Source: a phage. From it: a stretch of 64,000 nucleotides of DNA. A model generated the notes under the pieces. The model ran no database searches. It saw nothing but the letters and a program-made list of their open reading frames with translations, and was not told the origin of the DNA. Every line of letters begins with the position of its first letter. The stretch's first letter is position 1. The DNA lies in sequence record PZ476263.1, one strand, 5' to 3'. A program made the translations under genes and the position numbers. Below, one piece after another: positions 3,128 through 24,420 of this stretch.

Positions 3128-4174
3128 TTAGCTTACGATATTTGCAAGCAGTTGTGCACGTTTTTCTTTCGGCAACAAGTTGACACGTCCACGGCGCTGC
3201 TGGCCTGTTTTCTTGTTACGATAACGAACGTATTTACCGAGGTTTGTATAATGGAAGCCATCTTCAACCCATTCAGACATGTCCACCAGATCGTCAGTGT
3301 ACAGATCGAAGTTCGGAAGTCGATTGTCCCAAGCCATAAGGATTTCATAAAGCTCCTGGTTAGAAAGAACATCGTACATGTTGTAGTCTTTCATTTCATC
3401 CCAAGCTTCCATATTACCTTTTAAGCATTCTGCCCAAAGCTTATGACCTGCAAACTTACCATGCTTTGATTTCTTATATTTACTACACAGCTTATCTGTC
3501 AGATATTCCAGTTTGTTGGAAGTAAATGCAAATGTTGCTTTTGCAATTTGTAGAGTGTCGATCATTCGATAATTCGAAGGCTTATCATAACCATTCAAAA
3601 TAAATCGTGCATTGATCTTCTTCATATCAAATTTCTTAATGTTGTGACCAACAACCACATCAGCATCGTCTAGCAGCGACCAAAGATCAGGCATTAATGT
3701 TGCATCGCTCTCTGATTCATAATTTTCACGAATATCACGATAGATGATCTCTTCTGAATCTGCCCATTTCGCAACGAAGGACATGATATACCAATCCGAC
3801 TGCAACTGATTAAGGCCAATGTTGTTATTCCAAAGGCTCCAGCAATGACCCAGTAGAGGCGCTGTCTCGATATCAATAAACAAGATTCGGGCACGATTAT
3901 AAGAGAATTTACGATTATGGTCTTGCAGTTTAAAGTCCACAGTGTTCTTAGCTGTGGCTGCAAACGCTTCTTGATCCGCCATGAATCGATCATATTCAGA
4001 AAGAAGATCTTGAACTGAACTTACACCCTGTTTTTCAACTTCTCGACGCAACATATTTCGAACTGTAGATTCTTGAGATTCTTTACCCAACTGTCGGGCA
4101 ACTTCACGTTGAGACATACCGTGCTTCATCAGATCCAGAACTTGCTCAACAGTAAAAGTTACTTTATTAGACAT
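3128..4174 (-). CDS. DEDDy-type 3'-5' exonuclease with N-terminal helix-turn-helix domain
   Basis: Exo motifs FIDIETAP, VVGHNIKKFDMKKI, YNMYDV; N-terminal MSQREVARQLG HTH-like segment. Confidence 0.55.
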   Translation of the reverse strand: MSNKVTFTVEQVLDLMKHGMSQREVARQLGKESQESTVRNMLRREVEKQGVSSVQDLLSEYDRFMADQEAFAATAKNTVDFKLQDHNRKFSYNRARILFIDIETAPLLGHCWSLWNNNIGLNQLQSDWYIMSFVAKWADSEEIIYRDIRENYESESDATLMPDLWSLLDDADVVVGHNIKKFDMKKINARFILNGYDKPSNYRMIDTLQIAKATFAFTSNKLEYLTDKLCSKYKKSKHGKFAGHKLWAECLKGNMEAWDEMKDYNMYDVLSNQELYEILMAWDNRLPNFDLYTDDLVDMSEWVEDGFHYTNLGKYVRYRNKKTGQQRRGRVNLLPKEKRAQLLANIVS

Positions 4175-4184
4175 TTATTACTCC

Positions 4185-4409
4185 TTATTTTGAAAATTCG
4201 ATAATATCTACAACAGCGAAGTCGCGGATTTCTTGTTTGTCTGCATCATATGCACGTAGGAACCACTGAGGACCTTTATGGTAAGGACTTTCCCCGTACC
4301 ACATGGTTGGCGCACCTAAAACTGTGCGATAACCACACTCTCCTTTCCAATTCTTATAAAAGAATCGAATAGCCGGACAATCAATTCCCGACAAAAGTTT
4401 TTCGCTCAT
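4185..4409 (-). CDS. hypothetical protein
   Basis: 74 aa ORF. Confidence 0.35.
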   Translation of the reverse strand: MSEKLLSGIDCPAIRFFYKNWKGECGYRTVLGAPTMWYGESPYHKGPQWFLRAYDADKQEIRDFAVVDIIEFSK

Positions 4410-4971
4410 ACAAATAACTCTCCTCCAGCTCTTTTATGAATGCCTTCACATAAATCTCAATCATTGTGCTCTTATCGAGATTTTCATCAATAACTACGCC
4501 GTATCTTTCTAAACCGTTTCGAGCTATTGTTTCCTTTTTTATCCGCTTAAGATATTTTTTCAAATCTGCGACAATCTCTCCGTGAAATTTATTCAATGAA
4601 TAATCTCTTTCAAGATAATCAGCCATTCTACGCAAGACTTCACTCATTGTCAAGGATGTTTTATCTTCCATGTGCTTAGACCAAAGCTTTTGCACACCAC
4701 CTTCAAAAAGGTTTATTGTGCTCCCGATAACACCCCTGACTTTACCATCAAAGTGGTCATGGTCAAGACAAGGTTTTTCCATAACCTCCCCCAGTATAGC
4801 ACAAACTCCCTGTTGGTCAAGTAAAATTTCATCACGATATTTGGAAATTTCTTTAGAACCACTTACCCAAATTTCCTTATTCAGTTTTACACGTATCGGT
4901 TTAGTTGCCTTATCCTTTGCTACGAATAATGGCTTCTTGGACCGCCTCTTCCTCGATCTGCGTGCTTGCAT
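4381..4971 (-). CDS. endonuclease VII-like Holliday junction resolvase
   Basis: CAILGEVMEKPCLDHDHFDGKVRGVIG matches T4 endo VII zinc/HxDH core (C..C...LDHDH...KVRG). Confidence 0.65.
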   Translation of the reverse strand: MQARRSRKRRSKKPLFVAKDKATKPIRVKLNKEIWVSGSKEISKYRDEILLDQQGVCAILGEVMEKPCLDHDHFDGKVRGVIGSTINLFEGGVQKLWSKHMEDKTSLTMSEVLRRMADYLERDYSLNKFHGEIVADLKKYLKRIKKETIARNGLERYGVVIDENLDKSTMIEIYVKAFIKELEESYLYERKTFVGN

Positions 4972-18964: not shown

Positions 18965-19047
18965 GCGCGGGTGTATCTCAACGGTCTTCTAAACCGTCGT
19001 TAATCGAGTAATTGGAGTATGAAGGTTCGAGTCCTTCCTCCCGCGCT
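18965..19047 (+). tRNA. tRNA-like element, atypical (canonical anticodon arm with UCU and T-arm, but no canonical D-arm or encoded CCA)
   Basis: acceptor GCGCGGG/CCCGCGC; ACGGU-CUUCUAA-ACCGU anticodon hairpin; GAAGG-TTCGAGT-CCTTC T-arm. Confidence 0.35.
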
Positions 19048-19064
19048 AAGTTCTTTTAAATGCA

Positions 19065-19140
19065 GGCCCTTTAGCTCAGTGGTTAGAGCAGGCGACTCAT
19101 AATCGCTTGGTCGCTGGTTCAAGTCCGGCAAGGGCCACCA
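19065..19140 (+). tRNA. tRNA with CAT anticodon; anticodon stem and acceptor resemble enterobacterial tRNA-Ile2 (lysidine) rather than elongator Met
   Basis: GGCCCTT acceptor, GCTC/GAGC D-stem, GGCGA-CTCATAA-TCGCT anticodon arm, TTCAAGT T-loop, encoded CCA. Confidence 0.8.
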
Positions 19141-19157
19141 CTCAATAGTTTATTTAC

Positions 19158-19249
19158 AAGATCATTCAGTAATTAAGCGAATGCCGGAAGCAGAACCGGA
19201 TCAACAAATGCGTACGGGTGTCATCGCCACCTAGCAACTGAATGATCTT
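19158..19249 (+). other. long stem-loop RNA element (13-bp perfect inverted repeat flanking 66 nt), followed by U-run; possible terminator or small RNA
   Basis: AAGATCATTCAGT (19158-19170) and ACTGAATGATCTT (19237-19249); internal CCGG-aagcagaa-CCGG hairpin. Confidence 0.45.
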
Positions 19250-19332
19250 TTAAATTCTCTTAACCTCATAAAATCCTTGACATAATAAGAAATTCCTGAT
19301 AACATCTCTATATCGACTTAATTGAGGTGCTT

Positions 19333-19707
19333 ATGCCTAAAGCTGAAATCGTTACTAGAAAACGGGGTCGGCCTACTACAGAGGAAAGTATCGCTATCAA
19401 CACCGAGAAGGCGATTCTTCATGCTCGTTCAGAGTTTGCAAGACTTACTCCTCAGGCGATTAAGACTCTGGAAGGTCTACTCACTTCCGGTACAGAGAAA
19501 GTTAAAGAAACTACTGCGAAGTATATTCTTGAACAGGCTGAAAAAGCTAACAATCTGTACACGATGGAAGATAATGAGGAAGATTTAGCGGGAGGTTCAA
19601 CTTCTGCGGATTCTGATACTCATAAAGGCCCTTCTGATGTATTTAAGGATGCAATTCCTCTTACTACTCAAATCAGAGAGTATAAAATTGCAGAAGGTGA
19701 AAACTAA
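19333..19707 (+). CDS. hypothetical protein with N-terminal basic KRGRPT segment
   Basis: 124 aa from ATG at 19333. Confidence 0.4.
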   Translation: MPKAEIVTRKRGRPTTEESIAINTEKAILHARSEFARLTPQAIKTLEGLLTSGTEKVKETTAKYILEQAEKANNLYTMEDNEEDLAGGSTSADSDTHKGPSDVFKDAIPLTTQIREYKIAEGEN

Positions 19708-19728
19708 AGGCTCTTAGGGGCCTTTTAT
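19707..19728 (+). terminator. putative intrinsic terminator
   Basis: AGGCTC-ttag-GGGCCT hairpin followed by TTTTATT. Confidence 0.4.
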
Positions 19729-19946
19729 TAATAGTTCTTTTTAATGTAGTTGCTTGGTGTAATTTTTCGGCAGATGGCTGCAACCATCCTATCGATAACT
19801 CATAGTTAGTGCTGCAAACACTGGCTACCTTAAAGAGAATTTAACTCGTCGAATAAGGAAGATGCTGATCTCAAAGTGAGGTCACTTACCGCAAGGGGTG
19901 TGCATAGACTCCCGCTTCCGAATAGACTATGTGGCGAGATGTATTT

Positions 19947-20028
19947 GGGGACGTGGCAGAGCGGTCGAATGCGCCTGACTGTAAATCAGGTATCCCACAC
20001 GGTGGTTCGAATCCATCCGGCCCCACCA
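19947..20028 (+). tRNA. tRNA-Tyr (GTA)
   Basis: CCTGA-CTGTAAA-TCAGG anticodon arm, GGTGG-TTCGAAT-CCATC T-arm, acceptor CGGCCCC-A-CCA; overall like enterobacterial tRNA-Tyr. Confidence 0.75.
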
Positions 20029-20282
20029 AATTAAGAAGCAGGGTCGCTACCTGCAAGTCGTCGGACTGAGATTCCCTGAATAAGACCCGACTTTAAGGCG
20101 TACAAATGTTCGGTTTAAAGTCCCTTATCTCACAGTCGAAACGGCGCATCCTATTCAGCCGTGATGTGATGTAATCACTGACCTCTTTGAAGGATCATGG
20201 CATCCTATACAAAAAAAAAACCTGAATAATTTAGGTTTTAATGCCTGGGGGTTCGTAGCCCTATTACTAAGAGGACTTAACT

Positions 20283-20492
20283 ATGTTTACTATTAAAATT
20301 ATTGATATCGATGGAAATGAGACGGGTGTTTCAACAAGGCACTACAGATGGTACTCAAAAATGAATATTTTTGATGTGGAGGGTGGAGAATCTGTTTCTG
20401 TACCACCAAAAAGTCGTGCTTATGTAATGAATGACAAAGGAATAACCATCGGTAGATACACAAATACAGCGGATCAACGCGTTCTTAATTAA
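20283..20492 (+). CDS. hypothetical protein
   Basis: 69 aa ORF between tRNAs. Confidence 0.35.
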   Translation: MFTIKIIDIDGNETGVSTRHYRWYSKMNIFDVEGGESVSVPPKSRAYVMNDKGITIGRYTNTADQRVLN

Positions 20493-20493
20493 A

Positions 20494-20568
<75 letters not shown>

Positions 20569-20667
20569 AACACATATCCATCTGACGCGTTTATGGGGTT
20601 GACCTGATCAATCTTCTCCTAATTTCGTGTGAAGACATCATGATTGTTGGGATGGATAAACTTATTT

Positions 20668-20742
20668 TGGGGATTAGCCAAGCGGTAAGGCATCGGATTT
20701 TGATTCCGACATTCACTGGTTCGAGTCCAGTATCCCCAGCCA
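20668..20742 (+). tRNA. tRNA-Gln (TTG)
   Basis: TGGGGAT...AAGCGGTAAGG...CGGATTTTGATTCCG...GGTTCGAGTCC...CCCCAGCCA; very close to E. coli tRNA-Gln. Confidence 0.85.
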
Positions 20743-20747
20743 ATTAA

Positions 20748-20824
20748 CGGTGTGTAGCGCAGCTTGGTAGCGCATCTGGTTTGGGGCCAGAGGGCCGTTG
20801 GTTCGAATCCAACTACACCGACCA
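20748..20824 (+). tRNA. tRNA-Pro (TGG)
   Basis: CGGTGTG TAGCGCAGCTTGGTAGCGCA TCTGG-TTTGGGG-CCAGA ... GGTTCGAATCC ... CACCGACCA; very close to E. coli tRNA-Pro. Confidence 0.85.
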
Positions 20825-20939: not shown

Positions 20940-21302
20940 ATGCCAGATTTTAAAAAATATTTATTCATTGCTATATTCATAGTGTTCTTAATTTCATCTG
21001 CTAAGCTTTATCTTAATCATGTTGAATCAGTAGGTTACGAAAAAGGTTTCAATGTTGCTAACTCTGCTTGGGTAAAAAAGGCAGGGGAGTACAAAAAGAA
21101 AATTGACGATACATATGAAGAAAACAAGCGTCTTAACGAGGAGCTTTCCCGATCCAATCAGGAAAAGATAAAGGATGAAAAGGCAAAAGAAGAAAAAATT
21201 ACCGATATGCAGATCGAATACTACAAGTCTGAAAAAGGTAAGGATGTCTTTGACAATAATGAAATAATTGACATATACAACGAATCCTTGGGGGTAAAAT
21301 GA
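20940..21302 (+). CDS. i-spanin-like protein (N-terminal TM helix + periplasmic coiled coil)
   Basis: MPDFKKYLFIAIFIVFLISSAKLYL TM followed by charged coiled-coil; ATG at 20940 after AGGAGG RBS. Confidence 0.5.
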   Translation: MPDFKKYLFIAIFIVFLISSAKLYLNHVESVGYEKGFNVANSAWVKKAGEYKKKIDDTYEENKRLNEELSRSNQEKIKDEKAKEEKITDMQIEYYKSEKGKDVFDNNEIIDIYNESLGVK

Positions 21303-21598
21303 GAAAAATATTTATAGCTTTCTTCTTTTGCTTTTTACTTTCCGGTTGTCAATCAGCAGAAATCTGTGGCCCTACGGAAGAAGTAACTATTGAGAAGATT
21401 CTTCCTAAACCTGATCTTGAACTCCTTGTCAAAGAAAAGGAAAAGAAGCTCATCCAGAAGGGATCTACTAATGCAGACGTTGGAAAGGTCATGAGTGATA
21501 ACAATCTTCGTTCCAATCGTATAGAGCGCCGTTGGGAAGGCTTAAGGACTTACGTTTGCAACAGTTTCAAAAATATCCCTAAAGAATACTGCGATTAA
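21299..21598 (+). CDS. o-spanin-like outer-membrane lipoprotein
   Basis: signal peptide with lipobox FLLSGC; ATGA overlap with upstream i-spanin-like gene. Confidence 0.5.
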   Translation: MRKIFIAFFFCFLLSGCQSAEICGPTEEVTIEKILPKPDLELLVKEKEKKLIQKGSTNADVGKVMSDNNLRSNRIERRWEGLRTYVCNSFKNIPKEYCD

Positions 21599-21695: not shown

Positions 21696-22050
21696 ATGTC
21701 TGCTACATTCGCACCTGCGAGTCGCAAGCAACAAATGGTTCTCGAATCTACAGCACAGATTATGGTAATAGGTGGTGCAGCAGGATCAGGTAAATCATAC
21801 CTTTTACAGTTGATGCCTTTGCTTATTGTAAACGACCCTAAAACAGCCTGCATCATGTTTCGTCGTACTGTACCGCAGATTCGTGGACAAGGTGGCTTGT
21901 TTGACAAAGCTAAAGATATTTATAACCAGCTGCCTCCGGTAGTTAAGCCGAAGTTTAAAGAGAACGAGATGACTGCTACATTCCCTAACGGAGCAACCGT
22001 TAAGTGGCAGTCTATGCAACACGTAAGTGATAAATACGACATCCAGGGGT
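21696..22050 (+). CDS. terL: terminase large subunit, exon 1 (Walker A ATPase segment)
   Basis: IGGAAGSGKSY Walker A; frame terminates at TAA 22050-22052 inside predicted intron 1; predicted 5' splice site after U22050. Confidence 0.6.
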
Positions 22051-22960
22051 AAAAATTTCCTGCCCATCGTATCTTAATCGGTGAAACTCTGTTATAATAA
22101 GTACAGACAATACCGAGATCCATTACCTGAAATGACAGTAGGGAGATATGATGAAAAAATTTGAAATTGTTCCAAGCAAACCTGAATTTTCCGTAAGTGA
22201 AGACGGGCTGATTATGTTTACCTCTACAGGTACTATTCTTAAGCCGTATGTTGATAAGGATGGTTACCACAGGGTTAGAAATTTCTCTGCTGGAGGTAAA
22301 TCTCATTACATCGCCGTTCATCGCGCCGTTGCTGAGGTTTTTGTTAAAAACCCTAACCCAAAAGTGTTTAAGATTGTTAATCACTTGGATAATGTTAAGA
22401 GCAACAATCATAAAACCAATTTGGAATGGACAACCGAATCATTAAACCGAGTTCATGCAGTTCATGCCAACGGTACAGCATCTGTTAGAAACAATGTTAA
22501 ATTTACAGAAGGTCAAGTCAGAAAGGTGTGTGAACTTTTGAGCTTGGGCTATCGGATAGTTGATATTGTGAAACTTACAGGCGTTGATAGATTCAATGTG
22601 ATGGCAATTAGAAGCGGAAAATCTTGGGTTCAGATCTCTTGTGAGTTTGAAACTTTAAAAGTAGAAAGAAAAGATACACTGTCTGAAAAGACGATTCTTT
22701 GGATTAAAGACCAAATTAATCGCCAAAGGTCAGATGATGAAATACTTTTAATGTCGGTAAGACTTACAAAAGAAGAGCTTGAAAGAGCAAAGAAGATTAT
22801 TTCATTGATGGATTGTAACGACTAATGCTGATGAGTGTAAGCATGTAGGGCCAAGCGGTCCGAAACGATACGCCAAGGATGGAAGATATAGTCTGAACTA
22901 TATGGTGACATATAGCTGCTTAAGCAGGGTTAAGATTAGCGATCTTAATCGAACACAATG
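22051..22960 (+). mobile_element. group I intron 1 (about 910 nt) with internal HNH homing endonuclease ORF
   Basis: S element AAGATATAGTC at 22883-22893, R-like AACGACTAA at 22818-22825, P9 hairpin CTATATG-GTGA-CATATAG (GNRA loop), candidate IGS GCCC near 5' end, 3' end ...GAACACAATG. Confidence 0.6.
22148..22825 (+). CDS. intron-encoded HNH homing endonuclease
   Basis: DGYHRV...HRAVAEVF...NHLDNVKSNNHKTNLEW HNH core; lies wholly between terminase exons. Confidence 0.65.
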   Translation: MMKKFEIVPSKPEFSVSEDGLIMFTSTGTILKPYVDKDGYHRVRNFSAGGKSHYIAVHRAVAEVFVKNPNPKVFKIVNHLDNVKSNNHKTNLEWTTESLNRVHAVHANGTASVRNNVKFTEGQVRKVCELLSLGYRIVDIVKLTGVDRFNVMAIRSGKSWVQISCEFETLKVERKDTLSEKTILWIKDQINRQRSDDEILLMSVRLTKEELERAKKIISLMDCND

Positions 22961-23014
22961 TGGAATTTACATTTATAGGTGTGGACGAAGGCACTCAGTT
23001 TGAGTGGGAGCAGT
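22961..23014 (+). CDS. terL: terminase large subunit, exon 2 (54-nt micro-exon encoding Walker B-like FTFIGVDEGTQFEWEQ)
   Basis: in-frame segment between two intron cores; hydrophobic stretch + DE typical of terminase Walker B. Confidence 0.5.
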
Positions 23015-23341
23015 TAATCTAGCTGCCTCGTACAGTAATGTACGATGAGAAATTCTTGTGAATTGCTGGAAAATCCTTAGAGCTTGTAAAACTACAACAT
23101 GACCTGCAAAGGTGAGTGTGAATGTTAAAAATTTACAAGATTGGACGATCAGCCTCCAAGCCTCTTTACGAGAGGAAGGTTCAACGACTAGCCGAAAGGC
23201 GTAGATCATAAGCAAATGATGATCGAAGTGCAAGACCCCTACCTTATTGGTAGGGTGAAGATATAGTCTGATCTGCATGGTAACATGCAGCAGTGCTTGA
23301 GTGCACGGCAACGAACTTGCGATCCGTTGCGAACATAACAG
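23015..23341 (+). mobile_element. group I intron 2 (about 327 nt, ORF-less)
   Basis: IGS-like GCTGC pairing with exon GCAGU; R-like GTTCAACGACTAG 23179-23191; S AAGATATAGTC 23258-23268; P9 CTGCATG-GTAA-CATGCAG; 3' end ...GAACATAACAG. Confidence 0.55.
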
Positions 23342-24420
23342 TAGAATACATGATGTCTCGTCTTCGTTCCAGTTCTTCTTACCCTTCACGAATGGTAATT
23401 AGTTGTAACCCTGATCCTGATCATTATCTTCGTAAGATGGTTGATTGGTATCTCGATAAGGATGGTTATCCTGATCCTACAAAGGATGGAGTCATTCGAT
23501 ATTTCGTTCGAGTTGATGACCAATACATGTGGGGCGAATCAGTAGAAGAGCTTAAGAAGCGGTACGGTAAGAAATGTAAGCCTGTTTCTTTTACATTTAT
23601 ATCTTCTACTATTTACGATAACCCACCAATGCTTATTAACAACCCAGACTATCTAGCACAGCTGGAAGGTCTTAATGAGGTTGACAGAGCAAGACTGTTA
23701 CACGGCAACTGGGATGCACGTCCTCAGGGTGCTAACTATTTTAAACGTTCTTTTCTTAAAGAGGTTGATGTTCTTCCTTTAGGTGTAGATAAGGTTAGAT
23801 CATACGATAAAGCAGGAACTGAACGTTCTACAGGTAATAAAACACCTGACTTTACAGCCGGAATCGGTGTGGCGAGAGATCAGGACGGAATTTATTATCT
23901 TTTTGGCGATTATTGTGAAGAGTTTGTTGATGAAGGTGATTGGTCTACTGGCAACCTTGGTAGGTTCTGTAAGAAAGCTGGTGAACGAGATACGATCATT
24001 ATGAAACAAGCAATTCATGACGGTGATGATGTTAGAATAATATTCCCTGTTGACCCTGGTCAAGCGGGTATTGCTGAATTCACTACATCTTCCCGAGAAT
24101 TATTAAATCAAGGATTCATTGTTGAGAAAGACCCAACTCCTGGTAACAAGAAGAAGCTTGTACGCTTCTCTCCGTTTGCTAACCTTGCTCAGAACGGATT
24201 TGTTAGGATTGTTAAAAAGTCTTTCCCTTTGGATACCTATGAAGCATTAATGAAAGAGCTTGAATCTTTCAATGGTGAAAGGTCAACAGGGACACGTAAA
24301 GATGACTGGGTGGATGCTATCTCAACCGGAATAAATTTCCTTGAGAAAACAGAAATAGTCAGGGCTGTTACAATACCACGACCTTCTGCCCCAACACTTT
24401 ATTCGAAGTATCGACGATAA
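23342..24420 (+). CDS. terL: terminase large subunit, exon 3 (nuclease domain)
   Basis: continues ...EYMMSRLRSSSSYPSRMVISCNPDP...; acidic nuclease motifs DQDGIYYLFGDY, DPGQAGIA, DDWVDAISTG. Confidence 0.6.

Follow-up and report, generated by a model that had tools for sequence, protein, structure and literature searches.

The element at positions 23015–23341 of the 64,000-nt stretch of phage DNA analysed here (sequence record PZ476263.1; the whole stretch is hereafter called the window) is very probably a complete group I intron of subgroup IA that lacks an open reading frame (ORF), resembles the T4 td intron and interrupts the large terminase gene, TerL. It belongs to a lineage separate from that of the other intron in this gene; the upstream intron is referred to as intron 1 and the element under study as intron 2. 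The window is ∼81–84% identical at the nucleotide level to Escherichia Vequintavirinae phages with an intronless TerL and, judged by its sequence, represents a new Vequintavirinae-like phage. The TerL locus is organized as follows.

21696–22050, plus strand: TerL exon 1, 355 nt, codons 1–118 and the first base of Leu119, 3′ end CAGGGGU (from the ORF list and colinearity with the intronless TerL of phage A5-4)
22051–22960, plus strand: intron 1, 910 nt, subgroup IA, td-like, without P2, with an HNH gene in the P6 loop (boundaries from the intronless homologue)
22961–23014, plus strand: TerL exon 2, 54 nt, encoding (L)EFTFIGVDEGTQFEWEQ with the Walker B motif
23015–23341, plus strand: intron 2, 327 nt, ORF-less, assigned to subgroup IA, inside codon Leu137, phase 1
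23342–24420, plus strand: TerL exon 3, 1079 nt, rest of Leu137 to the stop codon

The window was aligned to the 1488-nt TerL of Escherichia phage A5-4 (Vequintavirinae), which is uninterrupted, and two insertions remained. In-frame splice combinations were then enumerated in which the upstream exon ends in U and the intron ends in G. A single solution (21696–24420) restores the DIQG-LEFTFIGVDEGTQFEWEQ-LEYMMSRLRS of the homologue, and it gives intron 2 exactly the coordinates of the original prediction. After both excisions TerL is 495 amino acids long, has an EWEQ-LEYMM junction at intron 2, and is colinear with and 92.9% identical over its full length to the intronless TerL of phages A5-4, UPEC06, LTH01, A73 and W70. 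Both introns are in phase 1 within Leu codons (U^UG and U^UA, with ^ marking the splice site). Exon 2 contributes to both RNA structures: P10 of intron 1 involves its first bases, and P1 of intron 2 its last five. An in-frame stop follows exon 2 after two codons of intron 2, and all three frames are closed. No homing endonuclease ORF was found in the intron, the only plus-strand ORF of ≥30 aa being a 30-aa ORF with a GTG start. The closed frames, the intronless homologues and the Rfam match given below thus agree with the earlier description of the element as an ORF-less intron.

Rfam model RF00028 matches positions 22986–23290 with 78.7 bits (gathering score 50) and E = 2.5e-18, and the match covers the full model (positions 1–253 of 253). 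Helices P1, P2, P3, P4, P5, P5a, P5b, P5c, P6, P6a, P7, P7.1, P7.2, P8, P9, P9.1, P9.2 and P10 are all fully complementary, and the minimum free energy fold of the intron recovers most of them (z = −3.5). The elements of intron 2, including its internal guide sequence (IGS), are located as listed here.

23010–23026, plus strand: P1, GCAGUU (23010–23015, exon GCAGU and U1) paired with AGCUGC of the IGS (23021–23026)
23029–23044, plus strand: P2 hairpin, CGUAC-AGUAAU-GUACG, differing from the orthologous intron L115 described below by one compensatory pair and one wobble change
23054–23179, plus strand: P3 5′ strand (23054–23060) and the P4–P6 domain
23065–23069/23149–23153, plus strand: P4
23074–23076/23143–23145, plus strand: P5, followed by P5a (23083–23090/23132–23139) and P5b (23097–23099/23117–23119)
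23102–23113, plus strand: P5c with a GCAA loop, followed by P6/P6a (23156–23179)
23181–23235, plus strand: R element and P7 5′ strand (UCAACGACUA), with P7 formed by 23186–23190 and 23264–23268
23191–23200, plus strand: P7.1, GCC-GAAA-GGC, followed by P7.2 (23204–23209/23219–23224) and the P3 3′ strand (23229–23235)
23237–23255, plus strand: P8 hairpin, CCCUACC-UUAUU-GGUAGGG
23258–23271, plus strand: S block (J8/7 and P7 3′ strand), followed by P9, CUGCAUG-GUAA-CAUGCAG (23273–23290)
23293–23341, plus strand: 3′ end with P9.1 (23293–23296/23303–23306) and P9.2 (23308–23313/23325–23330), the loop of which contains UUGCGAUC
up to 23341, plus strand: tail GAACAUAACAG with the terminal G (omega G) at 23341

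The 5′ splice site carries a U·G wobble (U23014·G23022), and P10 is formed by UCUA (23018–23021) and UAGA of exon 3 (23342–23345). P6 is closed as a tight hairpin of 24 nt and shows no remains of an ORF. Introns of subgroup IA in the Michel–Westhof classification have P7.1/P7.2 between P7 and the 3′ strand of P3, together with P9.1/P9.2 extensions. The presence of P7.1/P7.2 and of the P9.1/P9.2 tail therefore places intron 2 in subgroup IA, like T4 td. A 25-mer across P7–P7.1 is found without change in 54 IMG/VR contigs. The P9.2 loop motif (U)(A/U)GCGAnC is kept in 9/9 aligned 3′ tails, which come from eight TerL introns at several sites and from the W70 primase/helicase intron. It lies at 22936–22944 and 23317–23324 in the window and is also found at loci L002, L003, L015, L104 and L107; the stems below it covary, and the motif may be a tertiary-contact element. 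The L9 loop is GUGA in intron 1 (22905–22908) and GUAA in intron 2 (23280–23283), and P5 contains 5′-CU:AG (22089–22090/22105–22106) and 5′-CC:GG (23075–23076/23143–23144), respectively. These combinations fit the helix-receptor preferences of GNRA loops for the L9–P5 contact, and, if these preferences hold, the L9 difference between the two introns may itself covary with P5.

Selection on this structure can be followed in an orthologue located in a Logan contig (L115; SRR21707705_1055, about 4156–4475), which, with related Logan contigs, was reached via homologues of the HNH protein of intron 1. The L115 intron lies at the identical point (GAGCAGU^UAAC...AAG^UAGAG), so that the joined exons read GAGCAGU^UAGA in both genes, and it is 78.75% identical to intron 2 over 320 nt (257 bits in blastn). 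The two introns have the same architecture and IGS, the flanking exon bases are conserved, and the U·G wobble at the 5′ splice site is the same. They differ in P8, which is shorter by 2 bp in L115, and in the L9 loop (GAAA in L115, GUAA in intron 2). When the structure of intron 2 was placed on the alignment with L115, 98.2% of cells paired, and 18 pairs, distributed over 11/17 helices, were changed on both sides, among them a G-C to A-U change in P9. Slid alignments gave 0–2 double-changed pairs and none of the 500 shuffles matched the observed values. The 18 compensatory changes therefore point to continued selection on the structure of intron 2. P3, P4 and P7 are invariant between the two introns and thus uninformative. 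The L115 TerL carries three introns, at 118/119, 127/128 and 136/137 (sites are given as the flanking TerL codons).

Covariation was also apparent beyond the orthologous pair. In an alignment of the P5 extension and P6 from 11 introns (Staphylococcus, Enterococcus, Aeromonas and Vibrio phages and IMG/VR contigs), 95.2% of cells paired and 22/33 pairs were changed on both sides, with 0/500 shuffles equal. P9 was 99.6% paired across 38 distinct family members, with 6/7 pairs changed on both sides (0/500 shuffles equal) and 22 extra pair types compared with 11.6 in shuffles; these 38 sequences had been preselected as 7-4-7 hairpins with at least 6/7 pairs, which inflates the percentage paired and leaves the number of pair types unaffected. 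The counts were made on MAFFT alignments with explicit structures, in which the crossing helices P3 and P7 were kept in separate brackets. In the seed alignment of nine 3′ tails, P9.1 of intron 1 was shifted by one column, and this alignment was left out of the pair counts. The comparison across related loci that the original prediction had called for was thus made, and it upheld the RNA structure. No orthologue of intron 2 was found in INPHARED, IMG/VR, JGI metagenomes or GTDB genomes. The junction pattern CARTTAATCTAGCTGCC gave 14 matches in IMG/VR, all chance occurrences in unrelated coding sequence; a gapped pattern from the IGS to P7 gave zero matches in JGI metagenomes and GTDB genomes, and a pattern conserved between the window and L115 gave zero in IMG/VR and GTDB genomes.

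From these features a splicing pathway can be proposed. After transcription, intron 2 would excise itself in a two-step reaction initiated by guanosine. Exon GCAGU would pair with the guide of the intron in P1, with the U·G wobble at the cleavage site, UAGA of exon 3 would pair with UCUA in P10, and G23341, the last base of the intron, would be the leaving group. Exon ligation would then generate the EWEQ-LEYMM sequence in the ATPase domain of TerL, just past the Walker B motif. Some points tell against this proposal: we infer splicing from the RNA structure and the essential nature of the TerL gene, the genome in the window could formally be defective, and the orthologues of intron 2 that were found amount to one (L115).

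Such a defect is the essence of the explanation in which intron 2 is a decayed, splicing-dead relic and TerL either is a pseudogene or is made as separate pieces. Failure to splice is known among phage HNH introns, e.g. for the one in the nicotinamide phosphoribosyl transferase gene of phage CB7 (PMC7344957), and for intron 2 splicing is a prediction from sequence. Decay is nevertheless very unlikely here, as the core helices, U·G pair, terminal G, P10 and conserved junctions are all intact, the compensatory changes relative to L115 number 18, and every TerL exon is intact, the protein being 92.9% identical to a functional TerL. The 18-aa exon 2, moreover, holds the Walker B motif and could not work as a separate peptide. 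That the 327 nt are a coding insertion domain of TerL, sharing sequence blocks with intron 1 by chance, has a negligible likelihood. Nothing but the location inside a gene speaks for it, and it conflicts with the stop codon two codons in and the stops in all three frames, with the strong covariance-model match, and with a chance expectation of 0.02 for the S block. The 327 nt are also missing from all close TerL homologues. Translation of the region in related terminases had been named as an observation that would speak against an intron; what is found in relatives is a continuous TerL without the element.

The original prediction also regarded intron 2 as an ORF-less paralog of intron 1, and the likenesses on which it drew are real. 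The S block AAGATATAGTCTGA occurs exactly twice in 64 kb, at 22883–22896 and 23258–23271, when both strands are searched with up to one mismatch; the expectation of 0.02 was derived from shuffles. One nucleotide (A or T) past each S block there is a perfect 7-bp hairpin with a GNRA cap. The stems, CTATATG-GTGA-CATATAG (22898–22915) and CTGCATG-GTAA-CATGCAG (23273–23290), are distinguished by two compensatory pairs stacked on each other (A-U/U-A versus G-C/C-G). The hairpin is P9, and these pair-preserving differences reflect a conserved RNA structure. The IGS-like segments that had been noticed near the 5′ ends, CCTGCCC at positions 9–15 of intron 1 (22059–22065) and GCTGCC at positions 8–13 of intron 2 (23022–23027), hold the true guides: GCCC (22062–22065) pairs with exon GGGU in intron 1, and AGCUGC pairs with exon GCAGU and the first intron base in intron 2.

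A recent duplication within this genome, which would make intron 2 a true paralog of intron 1 that has lost its HNH ORF, could account for the exact 15-mer GAAGATATAGTCTGA in both introns and the 80% identity over 45 nt through P9, for the same 3′ layout (P9, P9.1, P9.2 and a GAACAnAA(n)G tail), and for the location of both introns in one gene only 54 nt apart. It is, however, most unlikely. Blastn between the two introns detects the 15-mer S block widened to 45 nt (39 bits) and an 8-nt R core and nothing more, and the 5′ halves are without similarity; the matches of intron 2 to introns of other phages in INPHARED reach 205 bits. The 3′ domains of introns 1 and 2 are 60% identical, which ranks each as 18th of 24 for the other, below T4 td; in a larger panel of 50 members the reciprocal ranks are 22 and 38 of 49. 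Each intron has closer orthologues elsewhere. The nearest 3′ domains to that of intron 1 are those of L116 (98%), L114 (84%), L117 (79%) and L115 (78%), followed by introns at the 127/128 site and T4 td (66–68%), and the nearest to that of intron 2 are L115 (81%), Aeromonas phage PhAER-4 (75%) and RudolfGeigy A (68%), with T4 td at 64%. The two introns also occur independently of each other, and the tight P6 hairpin of intron 2 retains no trace of an ORF.

The blocks common to both introns belong to the Rfam consensus, which itself reads gAAGAUAUAGUCu followed by a GAAA hairpin, and the exact 14-mer of the S block is also present in introns at 23 other fetched loci. Both P9 stems recur as well: CUAUAUG of intron 1 in the phiTE TerL intron and at least six IMG/VR introns, and CUGCAUG of intron 2 in T4 td, both RudolfGeigy TerL introns, a W70 intron and many others. 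The R and S blocks, the GNRA-capped P9 and the P9.1/P9.2 tail are thus a family consensus and indicate no special kinship. The pairwise comparison went against the proposed relationship, as likeness is confined to the R/S consensus blocks and P9, and P2, P5 and P7.1 differ in architecture. Intron 1 is without P2 and has a simple P5, an ORF in the P6 loop and a P7.1 loop GAUGAGUGUA, which is shared with L104X and is one base off in L107; the P7.1 stems under this loop covary (UGCU/AGCA, GGGU/GCCC, UCUCC/GGAGA). Intron 2 has P2, a conserved P5a-b-c extension and P7.1 GCC-GAAA-GGC, and relatives with its P5 extension and P7.1 are found in Staphylococcus, Enterococcus, Aeromonas and Vibrio phages. 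Of the paralogy claim, membership of the same large family stands and a specific relationship does not; intron 2 represents a lineage separate from intron 1, paralogous to it only at the level of the family.

Within intron 1, the HNH gene and the S block with P9 are located as follows.

22148–22825, plus strand: intron 1 ORF, 225 aa, putative I-HmuI-like HNH homing endonuclease, with the stop codon in the P7 5′ strand
22883–22915, plus strand: intron 1 S block (22883–22896) and P9, CUAUAUG-GUGA-CAUAUAG (22898–22915)

The HNH protein matches I-HmuI (PDB 1U3E) with E = 3.6e-12 over residues 13–114, and Pfam HNH_3 (16.6 bits) and NUMOD4 (18.8 bits) score under their curated cut-offs. It is predicted to be an I-HmuI-like nicking endonuclease. 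Its homologues in Logan assemblies number 66, the best being 96% identical, and a look-up of the exact protein sequence returned no record. All helices of intron 1 are complementary, and P3, P4, P5, P7.1, P8, P9 and P9.2 covary with L107 and L104X. The Rfam match to intron 1 is only a partial one of 23.6 bits because the ORF interrupts the RNA. Its P10 guide UUCC pairs with GGAA of exon 2; UAGAA of exon 3 could partly pair with the same guide if exon 2 were skipped. Orthologues of intron 1 in L114–L117 are 70–94% identical to it, and its 3′ domain has no match in complete E. coli genomes. L104 has, at 3265–3509, a homologue of intron 1 that lacks an ORF and uses the same IGS pairing (GCCC with GGGU). 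By codon alignment its site is 1 nt upstream of that in the window (GGU^UUG versus GGG U^UG), tracking a shifted GGGU motif, which could mean IGS-guided insertion (reverse splicing) or splice-site drift.

Among the TerL genes compared, intron 1 or an orthologue is present in the window, L115, L114, L117, L107 and L118, and the intron at 136/137 is present in the window and L115 and absent from the other four. Further introns are located at 127/128 in L115 and L114, near aa 458 in L107 and near aa 255 in L118, and the window and L117 have none. In the clade as a whole, TerL introns occupy 118/119, 127/128 (phiTE/CB7, L114, L115), 129/130 (RudolfGeigy, L104), 136/137 (window, L115), 227/228 (RudolfGeigy) and sites near aa 31, aa 255 and aa 458. 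Site 136/137 is a new insertion site, and at least four sites (118/119, 127/128, 129/130 and 136/137) lie in a 55-nt stretch surrounding the Walker B motif in TerL of the Vequintavirinae type. Mini-exons of 26–54 nt between TerL introns recur; L104 has one of 33 nt, and L115 has two, of 26 and 28 nt. Tandem group I introns at short distances are also seen at L003 (W70 primase/helicase), L110 (Aeromonas PhAER-4) and L111 (Enterococcus EF1). At each of these loci the 5′ part of an intron-2-like intron comes within about 75–620 nt after the 3′ part of a preceding one. In W70, the 5′ half of intron 2 matches one intron (80%) and its 3′ tail the other (77%), a split that suggests modular mosaicism.

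Several known systems resemble intron 2. The T4 td intron (IA2, carrying I-TevI) has the S block and a P7.1/P7.2 insertion between P7 and P3′ as in intron 2, and a P9-P9.1-P9.2 tail with GAACAUAAUG at its end. The two introns have the same P9 stem, CUGCAUG/CAUGCAG, and blastn aligns 36 nt at 92%. The likeness is restricted to the 3′ part, and the P5a-b-c extension was not seen in the comparison. The td host gene is thymidylate synthase, and td carries a GIY-YIG ORF in P6a, whereas intron 2 is ORF-less. The TerL HNH intron of Pectobacterium phage CB7 (Vequintavirinae) splices in vivo, as determined by reverse transcription PCR (PMC7344957). This CB7/phiTE (Certrevirus) intron shares with intron 2 the gene, the subfamily, the td-like family and a GNRA-capped P9, with a 3′ domain 61% identical. 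It differs in its site between Asp127 and Glu128, 9 codons upstream of that of intron 2, its length of 969 nt, its HNH ORF and its P9 stem of the intron 1 type. Escherichia phage RudolfGeigy (Bas52; Vequintavirus) has two ORF-less group I introns in TerL, and its GenBank record gives the TerL coding sequence (CDS) as a three-part join. These introns, placed by tblastn as global DNA alignment to A5-4 was too fragmented, have the P9 stem of intron 2 and 3′ domains 66–68% identical to it, but they are located at 129/130 and 227/228, not 136/137, and have no HNH-carrying neighbour. In Bastillevirinae and in Twort orf142, TerL contains two or three group I introns with small internal exons and exon skipping (PMC11878797); these phages are Herelleviridae that infect Gram-positive hosts, with other sites and other intron lineages.

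Comparison of the spliced TerL CDS of the window (21696–24420) and L114 (1168–3830) revealed 97.3% nucleotide identity with differing intron content; intron 1 itself is 76% identical between the two. Of 40 CDS mismatches, 12 fall at nt 300–450, around intron sites 355, 381 and 409, and none at 451–960. Such clustering suggests that the entire intron region was exchanged by gene conversion. The presence of intron 2 also goes together with particular synonymous bases at CDS nt 399, 408 and 411: the window and L115 have GAG..CAG U^UA, and L114 and A5-4 have GAA..CAA U^UG. Less certainly, the ORF-less intron 2 would probably spread or persist by gene conversion triggered in trans. The likeliest trigger would be the putative I-HmuI-like nickase of intron 1, 54 bp away, with intron 2 carried in the co-conversion tract. 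The T4 nrdB intron without a working endonuclease is subject to trans-homing driven by the neighbouring HNH nickase MobE (PMC2790892). It provides a model for the gene-conversion inheritance of an endonuclease-less intron proposed here, with the difference that MobE is encoded by a free-standing gene outside an intron, whereas the candidate nickase lies inside the neighbouring intron 1.

The trans-homing step is weakly supported, and some observations count against it. A second cluster of mismatches between the window and L114 is located at CDS nt 961–1440, and general mosaic recombination could therefore explain the clustering. The co-segregating exon bases could reflect selection for P1/P10 pairing and not co-conversion. 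Finally, L114, L117, L107 and L118 have an intron 1 orthologue without intron 2, and the two introns are therefore separable.

In a speculative reading that is less likely than not, introns 1 and 2 may form a composite mobile cassette, in which the nickase of intron 1 would drag intron 2 into related phages, with an in-frame TerL isoform skipping exon 2 as a further possibility. Exon 2 is exactly 54 nt (18 codons) and both introns are in phase 1, so joining of 22050 to 23342 would stay in frame and yield TerL without the Walker B motif. By analogy with exon skipping in SIOphi TerL, the product is a possible regulated or dominant-negative isoform. If true, the cassette would account for the scattered occurrence of intron 2 and for the co-segregating exon polymorphisms.

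The region upstream of TerL contains a tRNA cluster (window 18967–20824), in which ARAGORN identified Met(cat), Tyr(gta), Gly(tcc), Gln(ttg) and Pro(tgg) tRNAs; a weak Rfam tRNA match at 18967–19045 (35.8 bits) was not called by ARAGORN. The cluster is followed by two overlapping small ORFs at 20941–21598, just upstream of TerL, which correspond in position to the i-spanin and o-spanin genes annotated in RudolfGeigy; the second (21299–21598) has a lipobox-like LSGC.

Group I introns in phage TerL, genes with multiple introns, mini-exons and trans-homing have all been described before, and the current understanding of them is unchanged by intron 2. For annotation, the gene structure has a direct consequence: in Logan gene calls such a TerL is divided among a fragment of 118 aa, an HNH gene and a fragment of 356–375 aa, and recognition of both introns recovers a single 495-aa terminase. 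The window and L114, with 97% identity of the TerL CDS and unlike introns, form a handy natural system for the study of intron gain and loss, co-conversion and trans-mobilization of ORF-less introns.

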